Source of the DNA: a virus
Virus record (IMG/VR): IMGVR_UViG_3300035232_000745
Strand: one strand, 5' to 3'
DNA: 64,000 nucleotides
The notes under the pieces are model-generated. The model was not told where the DNA came from. It did not search any database and worked only from the letters and a program-made list of their open reading frames with translations. Shown in pieces: positions 2,659 through 42,826 of this stretch. Within the stretch, counting starts at the first letter, position 1, and each line of letters starts with the position of its first letter. The translations under genes and the position numbers were made by a program.

Positions 2659-2732
2659 TAGGGTGTAGTATAATGGCAGTACAACGGATTCCAAACCCGT
2701 TGGCGTGGGTTCGATTCCTACCACCCTTGCCA
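2659..2732 (+). tRNA. tRNA-Trp(CCA)
   Basis: anticodon loop TTCCAAA, GGTTCGATTCC T-arm, G discriminator plus CCA. Confidence 0.9.
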
Positions 2733-37923: not shown

Positions 37924-38114
37924 TGAAAAAGATAGTTCTTGTAAGAAATCGCATGTTGCTTTCTGCTTTGTTGAAAGCGTTAATTCGTTATATGAACTAT
38001 CAAGAAAAAACTAAAAAATATATTAACCCTAAATCTCAATGGTCCGGGGTTAATAATACAGAAGAAACTCTTATGCTTCAAGTTAAGAGAGTTTTAGAAA
38101 GACGATTGGGTTAA
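37920..38114 (+). CDS. small hypothetical protein
   Basis: coupled ORF. Confidence 0.45.
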   Translation: MMKKIVLVRNRMLLSALLKALIRYMNYQEKTKKYINPKSQWSGVNNTEETLMLQVKRVLERRLG

Positions 38115-38482
38115 GACGTGTAACCACTTTCTTTAGTGAGTTTCATAATGACGTGGAATGGTCCGTCGCCAATGATGCGTATGTCTCTATCTGCATATAC
38201 GTTGTCTACGAAACCTGTATATTCATGAGAACCAGAGTTAACAAAATAATAATGTCCGTGAGCAGTTGCGCCATCCCACCTAGATACATCTACGTGTTTG
38301 TTGACTTTACAACCCCAAAATATTTCTTTAATTGTAACAGAAGCTGTACCCGAATCAAAAGTTTCGCCAGCAGCGGCAAGGTCTGATAGTGCAACATCAA
38401 CAGTATCGCCAGATGAGTCTGTTACGTATACTTTGATTACTGCTTCGTTCTGTGATCTTTTTAAATAATGAATACTAGACAT
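38111..38482 (-). CDS. putative virion protein
   Basis: start MSSIH after GAGG SD; late promoter on - at 38503-10. Confidence 0.65.
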   Translation of the reverse strand: MSSIHYLKRSQNEAVIKVYVTDSSGDTVDVALSDLAAAGETFDSGTASVTIKEIFWGCKVNKHVDVSRWDGATAHGHYYFVNSGSHEYTGFVDNVYADRDIRIIGDGPFHVIMKLTKESGYTS

Positions 38483-38637
38483 TGCAACCTCTTTTTTTAT
38501 TTTATTTATAAAATGACAAACTGTCACATTTTCACTTGGTGCATAACCGCAATGCCAAATAGGGCATGCTAATTTACCAATTTCCTTAATAAATAAAATT
38601 GTAAAACAGTTTAACACTTATTAGGAAAGGTACCAGA

Positions 38638-38913
38638 ATGGCACACACACTAAATAACGAATCATCTGCAGCATCAGTATTTGCATACAAAGTTGTAGTC
38701 TTCTTCGAAAAATTCGGCGCAGCAATGGCTAAGCGTAGAGAAGCACGAGCAACATTCAAAACCCTCCAAGGATTAACAGATCGCGAACTTAGCGACATTG
38801 GTATCAGTCGTGGAGACATTCGCTCGATCGCAAACGACACATGGGAAGATAATCGTAAACGCGATACTTTACCATATGCATCAACTAACTCTAACTTAAA
38901 AGGTTTTGTATAA
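38638..38913 (+). CDS. DUF1127 (YjiS-like) small protein
   Basis: L..LTDRELSDIGISRGDI. Confidence 0.9.
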   Translation: MAHTLNNESSAASVFAYKVVVFFEKFGAAMAKRREARATFKTLQGLTDRELSDIGISRGDIRSIANDTWEDNRKRDTLPYASTNSNLKGFV

Positions 38914-39101
38914 TGGAAATCGCAGGTGAACAACCAGTAAGAATGCCAAAATTTTTTAGATTATTAGCAAAAGGCTTAGTTGCTCTTGGAATGTTCTTAT
39001 GGGCATTTGGTGAGTCAGCAGGTAGAGCAAGAGCTGCAAGTGAATTATATCGTCAAGGATATGTAGAAGAAGCAAGAAGATTAATGTTGGAGAGTAAATA
39101 A
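38913..39101 (+). CDS. small protein with GRARAA.EL motif
   Basis: coupled ORF in DUF1127 operon. Confidence 0.7.
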
Positions 39102-39322
39102 TGACTGGTGATATAGCAACAATGGGCGCATTAATTGGCGCAGGGTTAGCAACATTTGGTATGGGTGGCGCAGCCATCGCAGTAGGAATGATTGTTGGTA
39201 GTGTACTTAAAGTAATGCCTAAGAAGCCGGATACTGGTACAATGTTTGTAGGAGTCGCATTTGCAGAAGCATTAGGAATCTTTGCATTCTTAGTAGCATT
39301 ATTATTAATGTTTGCGATCTAA
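39101..39322 (+). CDS. atpE: ATP synthase F0 subunit c paralogue with altered loop
   Basis: [20 protein letters not shown] with carboxylate Glu. Confidence 0.9.
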
Positions 39323-39543
39323 TGGTTGGTGAACAACACCTCGAGATCTCAGCGCAAGTAGTACAGAAATTAGGTTTCTATATGTTTGTGGTAATGACAT
39401 CTCTAATATTAATATGCATAGCATTTGGGTTTTATGCAGTGATTACTAAGTTTAAAGAACCCACATGGAAAGAAGCGTGTATCGCACAAGGCGGTGTACC
39501 AGTACAGTTAGAAAAATCATACTTCGACTGTAAGAAGCTGTAA
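39322..39543 (+). CDS. small single-TM protein
   Basis: TM helix plus C..GG......C. Confidence 0.6.
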   Translation: MVGEQHLEISAQVVQKLGFYMFVVMTSLILICIAFGFYAVITKFKEPTWKEACIAQGGVPVQLEKSYFDCKKL

Positions 39544-39558
39544 CAAAGAGGAAACGTA

Positions 39559-39693
39559 ATGTTTAAACGATTTATGAAATTAATGGAATATAGAAGTTAC
39601 TGCATGAGTATTAAGCAGTTGAGAGAAATGGGTATGTATGATAAAGCTGATGAAATCTCAGAATTCAAACACAACATGTATAAAACAAGTTAG
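39559..39693 (+). CDS. small protein (44 aa, not in ORF track)
   Basis: GAGG SD; QLREMGMYDKA resembles [11 protein letters not shown] of 38913 ORF. Confidence 0.55.
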   Translation: MFKRFMKLMEYRSYCMSIKQLREMGMYDKADEISEFKHNMYKTS

Positions 39694-39701
39694 GATATAA
39701 T

Positions 39702-40130
39702 ATGAAAACACTTTATTTTTATTTAGCAGTCTTCGCCGCAGTATTTACAGTGAGCGCAGCAAACGCAGACGTAACAATCGAAATGTTAAACAAGCGCGAC
39801 GATGGCGCTAAGATGGTTTACTCACAAGATATTACACGTATCGAAGTGGGTGAGATTATCACATGGATACCAACATCAAAAGGTCATAACGTAGAATTTA
39901 TTGCAGGACCAGACGGATGGAAGTTGCCTAAGAAATCAAAATTAAATAAAGTAGTTGAGATGCAGTTCAATACACCTGGTGTATATTTGTATCAATGTTC
40001 ACCACATAAAACAATGGGCATGATTGCTATTGTCGTTGTAGGTGATGGCGGAGATGGTTTATCTGTTCCAGGTAAAAAGATTAAAGGCAAGTCAAAGAAA
40101 AGACTTAAAGAAATAATGGCTGACCTATGA
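39702..40130 (+). CDS. pseudoazurin (type 1 blue copper protein)
   Basis: signal peptide, GHNV, YQCSPHKTMGM ligands. Confidence 0.9.
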   Translation: MKTLYFYLAVFAAVFTVSAANADVTIEMLNKRDDGAKMVYSQDITRIEVGEIITWIPTSKGHNVEFIAGPDGWKLPKKSKLNKVVEMQFNTPGVYLYQCSPHKTMGMIAIVVVGDGGDGLSVPGKKIKGKSKKRLKEIMADL

Positions 40131-40264
40131 TCGATCCAGACCACACTTACGTAAAGCCTAAAGGTGAGAAGAAAAAAGGCGGAAAGTAATAACTTTATAA
40201 ATCCGTATAAATAAAGGGTAGGCATTAAGTTGTCTACCTTTTTTTGATTCAACGGAGAAATATT

Positions 40265-40828
40265 ATGGGAAGAATACGTGATAGAGGTAATGATGGCGGT
40301 AATGTTTATAGGTGGCAAACATTAGCAAGATTCGTAAATACTAACGGTTGGAGAAGAGGCGCAGAACTAGGAGTTCACGATGGCGTTAACTACAAATATT
40401 TAATTAATAATTGTCCGAATTTACATTTAATCGGTGTAGATTTATACGAGCCACAACCAGAAAATAATGGTCCAGAAAAGTGGACTCCAGGCGAACATGG
40501 TCATGCTTGGAATCATAACGCATATTATGACGATATGAGAGAATTTTCAATAAAACACCCAGATAGAACTGATATAATTAAAGACTATACCACAGAAGCT
40601 GCTAAGACGGTTTATGATGGTTCATTAGATTTTGTATTCATCGATGCTGATCATGGATATGAAGGTTGTTTGCGTGATATTAAAGCGTGGGATAGTAAAG
40701 TACGAGAAGGTGGTATTGTATTTGGACATGATATTCATTTCCCTACTGTACAAAAAGCAGTTACAGAATTTTACGGTGAAAACTCTTGGAACGTTGAAGA
40801 TGATTTTATTTGGTGGGTGCAAAAGTGA
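40265..40828 (+). CDS. class I SAM methyltransferase (Methyltransf_24-like)
   Basis: GAELGV, DFVFIDADH.YE, GG...GHD. Confidence 0.85.
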   Translation: MGRIRDRGNDGGNVYRWQTLARFVNTNGWRRGAELGVHDGVNYKYLINNCPNLHLIGVDLYEPQPENNGPEKWTPGEHGHAWNHNAYYDDMREFSIKHPDRTDIIKDYTTEAAKTVYDGSLDFVFIDADHGYEGCLRDIKAWDSKVREGGIVFGHDIHFPTVQKAVTEFYGENSWNVEDDFIWWVQK

Positions 40829-41475
40829 ATATTGAAAAGAAGCTGACACAGATTTGGATAGGACCTAAGCCTGCTCCGCTTACATGGATGCACACTTGGA
40901 GAGATAAACATCCTGACTGGGAATATTCTATATTTGATGATAGTATGCTTCATAATCGTAAATGGCATAACCAACATTTAATTGATCGTTACTATGCAAT
41001 GCAAAAGTGGCCAGGAGTATCAGACTTAATAAGATATGAATTGTTATATGAAAGAGGTGGCTTTTGGCCAGAAGCTGATATGACTTGCTTAGAAAATACT
41101 GATGAGTTGTTTACTTCACCAAAAGATCATGCTTATTCTTGTTATGAAAATGAAAAAGGAAGACAAAACTTTATTCAACCTATTATGGCATGTAATCCAG
41201 GTAATGCTTTCGTAAAACATGTCATAGATACATTACATATATTAACACCAAACGAATTAAGCCCAGAACCTTTTAGATCAACTGGAAATCTATTCTTAGC
41301 TCGTCATGTTCCGCATTGGATGCATCAACTTACAGTATGGCCCAGTCATTACTTCATTCCTTTGTTTTACATTGGCGGAGCTAAAAGATATGATGGACCT
41401 GATAAGGTTTATGCCGATCATAAATGGGGATCAACCGGCCATGCAAATAGTATAACATATGATAAGGGTTTATAA
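40825..41475 (+). CDS. GT32-like glycosyltransferase
   Basis: QIWIG, W...HPDWEY, SDLIRYELLY..GG. Confidence 0.82.
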   Translation: MNIEKKLTQIWIGPKPAPLTWMHTWRDKHPDWEYSIFDDSMLHNRKWHNQHLIDRYYAMQKWPGVSDLIRYELLYERGGFWPEADMTCLENTDELFTSPKDHAYSCYENEKGRQNFIQPIMACNPGNAFVKHVIDTLHILTPNELSPEPFRSTGNLFLARHVPHWMHQLTVWPSHYFIPLFYIGGAKRYDGPDKVYADHKWGSTGHANSITYDKGL

Positions 41476-42146
41476 TGTACATATCTCACAAATATAAATT
41501 GATATTTTTAAGATCTCCGAAAACCGCTAGTAGCAGCTTATCAGAGTTTTTTATTAAAAACATTCCCGATCCTGATGCTATATACACGCCAGTAGAAGAT
41601 AGTAATATAAAAGGAACATTGAGTCAGGATATTATTAATAGATATAAAACTCATTTCAAATTTTATCATTTTACTTTGCAAGATATAATTGATAATAATA
41701 TTATTACGAAAGAACAGGCATTATCATATCGTTCTATTTGTGTTATAAGAGATCCAGTCGATAGACAAAAAAGTTTTTACTACTTTTATAAAAAATGGAA
41801 ACAACCTGGTTCTCAAGCGAGCATTGAACAATACAACGATTGGACATCAAACGGTCCTTTTATAGGTGAACCTAACTCTGGTATATTACAATCATCTTTT
41901 TTAAAAATCGATAACAAAATTGTAGGAGAGTATTGGTTGTATCAAAACTTTCATAATGATTTAAGTCAATTAATGCGAGAATTAGACTTATCGGTAACAC
42001 ATATGTTACCACAGCATAAGACAGACTTTAGAAAAAACAGAGATAACGAAATAAAGTTTAACGAGTTTGCCACTGATAATTTAAACAAATTCTTTGGTTC
42101 AGATGTTAAGTTGTATAATGAATTATTAGAAGAGACTTATGTATGA
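41475..42146 (+). CDS. sulfotransferase family 2 protein
   Basis: PKTASSS PAPS loop, IRDP.DR..S. Confidence 0.8.
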   Translation: MYISHKYKLIFLRSPKTASSSLSEFFIKNIPDPDAIYTPVEDSNIKGTLSQDIINRYKTHFKFYHFTLQDIIDNNIITKEQALSYRSICVIRDPVDRQKSFYYFYKKWKQPGSQASIEQYNDWTSNGPFIGEPNSGILQSSFLKIDNKIVGEYWLYQNFHNDLSQLMRELDLSVTHMLPQHKTDFRKNRDNEIKFNEFATDNLNKFFGSDVKLYNELLEETYV

Positions 42147-42826
42147 AAGCTTACATATTAAAGATTGATACTCAAACATCGAATGAATATGCTAAAGTTT
42201 GTTCTGATAGCTGCAACAATATAGGACTTGATTGGGAGTATTTTAACGGGTTTCAAAACATGTCTGGAAAGATGGCTTTTAATACTTTAAATATCCCTGG
42301 TTTACCTGTAGAAACATACAGTCACATCGATAACCCTTCTACTGGCCATAAAGCTATGTGTGCTACAGCTGGTCATTTTGCGATATGGCAGAAAATTGCT
42401 AAGTCTGACCACGATGTAGGTATAGTTTTAGAACATGACGCAGTTATGTTACAACCAGTAACTATACAAATACCAGAAAATACTATCGTTGTTCTTGGTT
42501 ACAAAGTTAAAGATAAAGATAGATACGATCACAAATCTGCTGGTGTTCCTAATGATTTAATAAGAATTGACGGGCACGAAGGAGCTCACGCTTATGCAAT
42601 AACTAAAAGAACTGCTAAGTTCTTGCTCAATGAATTGAGCATACAAGGTGTTCATAGCGCAATAGATAATGATTATTTTATTAGAAGACAGCGCAGAACT
42701 GCAATGCCTTTAACTATAGCATCACCTACACCAGCTATAGGATGGTTAAGGGAATCTACCATATGGCAAGAAAGTTCTCATACTAATTATGAATTTATAC
42801 CCTCTTTTCATAAATATTATAAATAG
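42143..42826 (+). CDS. GT25-like glycosyltransferase
   Basis: H..IWQ, VLEHDA, GAHAYAIT..A. Confidence 0.75.
   Translation: MKAYILKIDTQTSNEYAKVCSDSCNNIGLDWEYFNGFQNMSGKMAFNTLNIPGLPVETYSHIDNPSTGHKAMCATAGHFAIWQKIAKSDHDVGIVLEHDAVMLQPVTIQIPENTIVVLGYKVKDKDRYDHKSAGVPNDLIRIDGHEGAHAYAITKRTAKFLLNELSIQGVHSAIDNDYFIRRQRRTAMPLTIASPTPAIGWLRESTIWQESSHTNYEFIPSFHKYYK

Follow-up and report, generated by a model that had tools for sequence, protein, structure and literature searches.

T4-like marine phages carry the bioenergetic auxiliary genes psbA, petE and ptoX, and the energy genes of viruses usually serve as functional spare parts. In the c subunit of the E. coli ATP synthase, the substitutions R41K/H/A and Q42E remove residues by which the loop couples the ring to F1 and leave the carboxylate in place. 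Altered or extra c subunits are also described from cells: the Acetobacterium c1 hetero-ring (PDB 4BEM), the N-ATPase c, the Bacillus pseudofirmus AxAxAxA c13, whose subunit keeps RQPE (PMC2914638), and the Podospora ATP9 paralogs (PMC4956034) all change ring make-up or efficiency. The literature that we searched, to which most subscription journals do not belong, holds no description of a phage c subunit.

Here we describe one from a virus (IMG/VR record IMGVR_UViG_3300035232_000745); the window, as we call it, is the whole stretch of 64,000 nucleotides that was analysed. The subunit, c*, has dropped the most conserved coupling motif and kept the proton site, and it is encoded beside a phage-only membrane protein, D72. 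To judge from sequence comparison, the pair probably rewires or short-circuits the host energy machinery late in infection. Annotation pipelines label c* an ordinary atpE, and at least one large c-ring survey drops sequences without the loop motif (bioRxiv 10.1101/2024.02.27.582367); both habits may be the reason why c* was overlooked.

A c subunit with a rewritten loop

The c* reading frame (Table 1) is preceded by a GGAG Shine-Dalgarno sequence, and its product matches Pfam ATP-synt_C (PF00137) with E=1.6e-12 (47.9 bits against a cut-off of 24). Its closest solved structure is the c subunit of Paracoccus denitrificans (PDB 5DN6, E=2e-15; the loop aligns with a gap of 5 residues), and the AlphaFold2 model is a hairpin of helices 5-38 and 45-72 (pLDDT 80.6). 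The nearest cellular relatives are Rhodobacterales; identity to the host copy of the MAG G001 is 63% (tblastn). The packing glycines of helix 1 are kept at G20, G22, G23, G29 and G33, and G27 is Ala.

The loop differs. Host R-N-P-S-A corresponds to V-M-P-K-K in c*, and the spacing from G29 to the proton-binding Glu is 27 residues against 32 in 37 of 39 RNP clusters, so that c* does not form a hairpin of R-N-P length. On PRK07558, the NCBIfam equivalog for alphaproteobacterial AtpE (cut-off 85), c* scores 61.3 bits and the host copy 111.3; the basal S-N-P form, discussed below, reaches 99.2 bits. Neither is c* an N-ATPase c subunit (TIGR03322, 30.1 bits against 130.85; an N-ATPase operon is absent) or a V/A-type proteolipid, subunit K (22.8 bits against 101). 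When the host a, b, b', AtpI, alpha, gamma and beta subunits were compared with the 64-kb window by tblastn they gave zero matches, and c alone matched. Thus, by sequence, c* is c-subunit-like in the membrane, yet it departs from AtpE in loop, length, equivalog score and operon, and for these reasons it should not be listed among functional AtpE proteins, even though its database name is 'F-type H+-transporting ATPase subunit c'.

Much of this had been read from the letters of the window in a preliminary description, and its account of the protein stands: a c subunit that retains the H+-binding Glu (Glu56 aligns to host Glu61 and is invariant), with helices close to Rhodobacteraceae AtpE, a loop (residues 35-45) that lacks R-(N/Q)-P and is about 5 residues shorter than the host type (73 aa against 78 aa in 58 of 65 hosts), and no second atp gene in the window. 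It also called the subunit stand-alone, which is right as far as other atp genes go and wrong in that a single-TM neighbour gene adjoins it; the late promoter motif went unmentioned there as well.

Table 1. Positions of c*, its neighbours and other features of the window, and of c* loci in polA-type phages.
Feature	Position	Strand	Basis or remark
Four tRNA genes: Arg(TCT), Leu(TAA), Met, Trp	1047-1294 and 2659-2732		
Two-piece (permuted) tmRNA, tag peptide ANENFAPSGYALAA	29217-29549	+	ARAGORN
gp33 late co-activator gene	32975		
Opposite-strand gene	38111-38497	-	likely start near 38480-38497; own TATAAATA at 38503-38510
Partly conserved element, GGCTAT.CAAATTGGTAA-like	38545-38585		30-50 nt before late box
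T4-type late promoter core ATAAATA	38589..38595	+	motif match, 43 nt before DUF1127 start
DUF1127 small protein, 91 aa	38638..38913	+	PF06568 E=1e-12, 47.9 bits against cut-off 23.3
B62, 62-aa virus-only small helical protein	38913..39101	+	TAATG overlaps on both sides
c*, Arg-less ATP synthase c subunit	39101..39322	+	ATG start, 73 aa, helical hairpin
V-M-P replacing host R-N-P, then K-K	39212..39220	+	homologous residues inferred from intermediate relatives
Glu56, proton-binding carboxylate (host Glu61)	39266..39268	+	alignment to hosts
D72, single-TM phage-only partner, 73-aa TM protein	39322..39543	+	adjacency to c*
E44, 44-aa small protein	39559..39693	+	HMM E ~0.01 to B62
Pseudoazurin-like blue-copper protein with signal peptide	39702..40130	+	Pfam Copper-bind E=1.7e-13
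Terminator-like hairpin, may end the c* unit	40213..40242	+	position only; 1 found against 1.0 expected in shuffles
Methyltransferase, DXD glycosyltransferase, sulfotransferase and a further gene	40244-42826	+	behind TATAAATA at 40207
polA-type c* locus L233	2796-3436		
polA-type c* locus L236	2871-3505		
polA-type c* locus L234	3001-3352		
polA-type c* locus L232	3001-3347		
polA-type c* locus L364	1264-1781		

A dedicated partner gene

D72 has no Shine-Dalgarno sequence of its own and its start overlaps the c* stop (TAATG); at T4-like loci the junction is a TAATG-type overlap in 53 of 72, and most of the others abut. The conserved part of the protein is one helix, with the motif K/R-x-G...F..M..L...C...GF.AV, followed by a dispensable Cys-pair tail that is missing in many lineages, and the predicted model consists of a long helix and a beta-hairpin. 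D72 carries no membrane-embedded Arg able to stand in for that of subunit a. The dN/dS of its TM part is 0.26.

The association with c* looks obligate. D72 lies beside c* at 71 of the 73 IMG/VR loci (both misses end inside the c gene), at 16/16 metagenome loci and at 7/8 other loci, the miss being a contig end. A reciprocal search from the partner side found c beside D72 in 44/44 cases, and the remote D72 homologs that it brought up likewise adjoin an Arg-less c. Outside T4-like loci the homolog sits directly before or after c* (HMM E 1e-35 to 0.003), and at RNP loci it was never seen (0/144). The family amounts to 7 clusters among 1.84 billion protein representatives; in the databases searched it has no cellular homolog and no Pfam or NCBIfam match, and in 151 related genomes it turned up on two phage contigs of G001, together with one chance TM match in G071. 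Compared by hhalign with host a, b, b' and c, D72 stays below 2% probability; AtpI, the best of five subunits tried, reaches 17% with a pairwise E=0.0014, which 1 of 60 column shuffles equalled. The link between c* and D72 is a genetic one, seen as gene adjacency.

Gene block and promoter

In a comparison set of 74 sequences, made up of the 73 IMG/VR loci and the window, four genes (DUF1127, B62, c* and D72) form a block in 70-72 of the 74 T4-like sequences, at several genome positions. DUF1127, present in 71/74, is a frequent companion of c* and not a universal one; it also adjoins c* in the polA-type phages L233, L236, L363 and L364. In Agrobacterium, DUF1127 proteins target the phosphate sensor PhoR, in a report that mentions no ATP synthase link (PMC12501420). 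B62 is present in 72/74 (dN/dS 0.29), its Atlas look-alikes are viral hypotheticals exclusively, and it is missing beside c* at polA-type loci. E44, found in 31/74 and weakly like B62, perhaps represents a second small-protein family related to DUF1127. The pseudoazurin-like gene is an optional member (11/74; TIGR02375 91.4 bits, below the cut-off of 109.85).

A TAAATA box precedes the head of the cassette at 28 of 37 loci without a leading hsp20 gene and at 21 of 23 that are hsp20-led, which makes 49/60 loci in all; the background is 19% at other ORF starts and 8% in random windows. The loci are related, so that these counts are not independent. From this motif we infer late expression of the cassette. 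The hsp20-led arrangement belongs to the regA-hsp20 group (L021-L062), in which about 23 loci have the cassette after an hsp20 gene with a TATAAATA box and a leader hairpin. The partly conserved element ahead of the late box recurs in about 6 related loci, and a conserved TTGTA directly follows the box. A LysR-type dyad upstream, GCAT-N7-ATGC, is by eye missing from most related promoters and is not a general feature. The opposite-strand gene and the cassette form a divergent late promoter pair, and the methyltransferase-sulfotransferase gene set often lies downstream of the cassette in relatives.

Phage context and spread

The window comes from a T4-like phage: genes for gp33 and for gp59-, gp32-, UvsX- and gp41-like proteins lie just upstream, and these T4 core genes as neighbours rule out host contamination or a chromosomal paralog. 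The helicase of the window is nearest to those of the Sinorhizobium phages phiM12 and phiN3 (52%). The two-piece form of its tmRNA is typical of alphaproteobacteria and supports the host assignment; four tRNA genes are encoded as well. G001, a GTDB representative and the nearest of the genomes compared, has a normal atpIBEXF operon and two binned phage contigs with Arg-less copies (C102 and C78, our loci L078 and L079), each with c* and the partner, through contamination or from an infected host. As these contigs carry phage genes and the normal operon lies elsewhere in G001, the copies are not chromosomal. Their presence hints only weakly at the host, as composition binning could lead to the same result.

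More distant Arg-less copies occur on a jumbo contig of 328 kb and on another large-phage contig, which also has ClpP and WYL genes; further ones come from polA-type phages, including a contig of 55 kb. In these phages the four-gene block is broken up and the D72 homolog stays beside c*; the polA-type phages have c* with a short partner of 38-42 aa, often DUF1127, and a gene order unlike that of T4-like phages. c* is absent from PHROG families and from GenBank phages, among which we found no cultured phage that carries it.

Family-wide loss of the Arg under selection

A protein search with c* gave 485 matches, and motif classes were drawn from the best 120: R[NQ]P is missing from 76 of these clusters and present in 39. 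The IMG/VR search gave 73 loci with c*. R[NQ]P is present in 0/73 complete viral copies against 65/65 host copies, and a host-type query likewise brought up no viral copy with RNP. Metagenome loci split just as fully: of 80, the 64 RNP copies lie in Fo operons without the partner and the 16 Arg-less copies lie with it, Fo genes near c being absent at 16/16 of the latter. The best 80 GTDB genome matches are all RNP copies within Fo operons.

The changes lie at the cytoplasmic end of helix 1 and in the loop, where N34, G38, A39, R41 and N42 are 100% conserved in hosts and replaced in viral copies. The proton-site Glu is at 100% in the 76 Arg-less clusters (best 120 of 485 matches) and in 44 unique viral sequences; in the same 76 of the best 120, A24, A58, F59, A62 and L63 are invariant and V28 is found in 75. 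For unsaturated pairs, dN/dS is 0.029 in phages against 0.043 in hosts for helix 2 and 0.134 against 0.301 for helix 1, and a separate calculation agreed for both helices; for the loop it is 0.071 in the rewritten phage form, a value that pair selection biases low, against 0.097. Among close relatives the rewritten loop has a pN of 0.098 and a pS of 0.65, and since pN lies far under any pS the loop is held within lineages; to judge from the alignments, it is constrained inside lineages and variable in length between them (G29-to-Glu 27-32). The idea that loop loss would prove to be conserved under purifying selection is therefore borne out, by the viral copies without R[NQ]P and by a helix 2 dN/dS of about 0.03, and family-wide Arg loss together with this selection rules out a one-off decay or frameshift of c*.

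Origin and history

In a tree of 92 rows and 78 columns, a branch with support 93/82, which is not firm, has the 54 Arg-less rows all on the same side. The form closest to hosts in the tree, P0113, is a full-length S-N-P in which only the Arg of the motif is lost. Beyond it come 78-aa x-M-P or x-L-P forms, then forms of 77, 76, 74 and 73 aa; the intermediate relatives comprise S-N-P, A/S-M-P and x-L-P at 78 aa, as well as 75-aa forms. This series suggests that in c* the Pro was retained, R-N became V-M, and about 3 residues were lost before the Pro and 2 after it. It also suggests that the Arg went first and trimming came later, following one capture and spread between phages. Independent captures with convergent Arg loss find no support, the tree being compatible with one origin. 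All Arg-less copies fit this single origin, so the universal loss of the Arg may be one event, not repeated selection.

The most host-like viral c (L225, 3774-4237; S-N-P, 78 aa, above the PRK07558 cut-off) already has its partner, upstream, and is a good candidate for the earliest stage. A host-looking candidate, P0112, with a phage-like N-terminus and RNP, turned out to belong to a normal operon. Among longer proteins in which c is fused there is no clear viral fusion; most join c to a or b and resemble read-through gene calls.

Possible modes of action

The mechanism is constrained by the invariant proton site, the host-identical outward helix 2 and the rebuilt F1-facing end. The invariant Glu and the helix 2 face favour a proton-carrying role with host Fo, and on the simplest reading c* would act with host subunit a and carry protons without a grip on F1. 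Of five phage records, among them a complete one of 221 kb, none contains a gene for subunit a or for alpha/beta, so that stator and F1 must be supplied by the host. To explain these results we tentatively propose, with somewhat less than even confidence, that c* and D72 loosen host Fo from F1 late in infection and open an F1-uncoupled proton path.

The strong ribosome site would drive c*, and translational coupling would yield less of the partner. c* would insert as host c does: the loop of Arg-less copies has a net charge between 0 and +3 throughout, in line with the part that positive loop charge plays in the membrane insertion of c (PMC2172039). The subunit would then co-assemble with host c and bind host a and b, because its Glu pocket and outward helix 2 face are identical to those of the host. 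Rings rich in c* would fail to grip gamma/epsilon, because the Arg-Asn is missing and the hairpin is about one turn shorter on the F1 side, yet they would still shuttle protons against subunit a. The outcome would be a proton leak or slip that lowers both PMF and ATP output, with the partner assembling, stabilising or gating the c* ring. We envision that the phage would thereby gain late control of membrane potential, serving a superinfection block, lysis timing or relief of respiratory back-pressure, the last of which would suit the optional pseudoazurin.

E. coli offers a precedent: according to work of Fraga (1994) and Mosher (1985), R41 and Q42 mutants reportedly uncouple F1 while Fo stays proton-permeable, and an Fo uncoupled by c* in the same manner is conceivable, if a little short of evenly balanced. 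Several points count against uncoupling. In fused E. coli c dimers and trimers, Jones et al. (2000) are said to have placed Q42E in every second or third hairpin and found coupling intact, so that rings might tolerate c* as a minority subunit. A leak late in infection would drain ATP while virions are being assembled. Host rings already in place are stable, and thus only newly built Fo could take up c*. The support for a late promoter is a motif match only, and the loss of the Arg in all copies may, as noted above, go back to one event.

The tolerance reported for loop-defective hairpins in fused E. coli c speaks at the same time for the main rival, a ring that is re-geared and still coupled, which we consider unlikely. 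Here c* would be a minority subunit and host c would hold F1; more proton sites or a wider ring would change H+/ATP so that ATP is made at low PMF, and the partner would fill or stabilise the ring. The invariant Glu and helix 2 suit such a role, and so does position 30, which we take to be lumen-facing and which is more hydrophobic in Arg-less copies. Among the 76 Arg-less clusters (best 120 of 485 matches), G27 is Ala in 21, c* included, and G29 is Ala or Ser in 9, exchanges seen in no host; Gly-to-Ala/Ser changes in the Gly motif of helix 1 widen c-rings (PMC2914638). Against this, most copies keep both G27 and G29, a hairpin 5 residues shorter would leave gaps in the F1-facing surface, and a supplement bearing RNP would do equally well and was not found.

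Quite unlikely, in our judgement, is a jam, in which c* and the partner bind host a/b or the ring and block rotation or assembly, shutting the ATP synthase without a leak and saving PMF. MgtC and AtpTheta are small membrane inhibitors of Fo, the partner that accompanies c* at all loci not cut by contig ends could be a wedge, and the host-identical helix 2 would direct c* to subunit a. The Glu is invariant, though, and the loss of a single carboxylate is a simple way to stop a ring, as co-incorporation of D61N reportedly does in E. coli. We regard as very unlikely a membrane complex of the phage alone, in which c* and the partner form their own ring or pore and act as a holin-like depolariser or exclusion factor with no parts of the host ATP synthase. 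Strict linkage of the two genes over unrelated phages and the late promoter motif agree with it, as does the channel activity reported for F1-free c-rings (PMC9433415). However, the outward face of helix 2 is host-identical (dN/dS 0.03) and the TM of the partner more variable (0.26), an indication that c* has its counterpart in a host protein, for instance subunit a, and a more hydrophobic position 30 is not pore-like. Both the jam and the phage-only pore thus suit the invariant Glu and helix 2 less well than a proton-carrying role does. An auxiliary atpE that aids host ATP synthesis, or a decaying capture, is already disfavoured and hardly credible: the database name and a loop length that differs across lineages would fit, against the Arg missing from all viral copies, a rewritten loop under constraint, the shortfall on PRK07558 and a dedicated partner protein.

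Two uses put forward in the preliminary description fare less well than its reading of the protein. ATP sparing is a weak motive, since hydrolysis by alphaproteobacterial F1 is already blocked by the zeta subunit. For a plain dominant-negative subunit, losing the Glu would be the simpler route, and the Glu is invariant. It is about an even call whether c* and its phage-only helix turn host Fo into a virus-controlled gated proton valve or a re-geared rotor, in several unrelated phage families.

Comparison with known systems

The two-gene module may well represent a new kind of viral device. Among the phages of a dominant group of marine bacteria, c* and its partner have spread over T4-like, jumbo and polA-type ones, and if they uncouple or re-gear Fo, phages would have a new means of control over host membrane potential and carbon flux. 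If this is true, the virus would encode a modifier derived from a rotor subunit, one that also lends itself as a natural tool to the study of mixed rings and c-ring leak. The natural sequences make it testable how many coupling loops a ring needs, whether H+/ATP shifts in mixed rings and whether a ring free of F1 leaks.

Among known systems, c* is most like Rhodobacterales AtpE, with which it shares the hairpin, the Gly-rich helix 1 and a near-identical Glu pocket and helix 2. It differs in having no R-N, in being 5 residues shorter and in G27A, and also in being phage-encoded behind a late-promoter motif, outside an atp operon and with a TM partner. The E. coli loop mutants resemble it in that the F1-coupling residues are lost and the carboxylate is intact; these are laboratory point mutants, whereas c* forms a family found in nature that is under selection, has deletions and comes with a partner. 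The partner itself recalls AtpI/UncI, the c-ring assembly chaperone, which is likewise a small membrane protein encoded beside atpE and shows a faint likeness around the GF.A motif, but AtpI/UncI has two TM segments and D72 one. The altered or extra c subunits of Acetobacterium, B. pseudofirmus, the N-ATPase and Podospora belong to cellular, F1-coupled enzymes; c* is viral and has lost the motif. Finally, like psbA, petE and ptoX, c* is a host-derived energy gene in a T4-like genome, with a petE-like pseudoazurin in the same unit. Those genes are working copies that sustain a host function, whereas c* is a copy without a defining functional motif.
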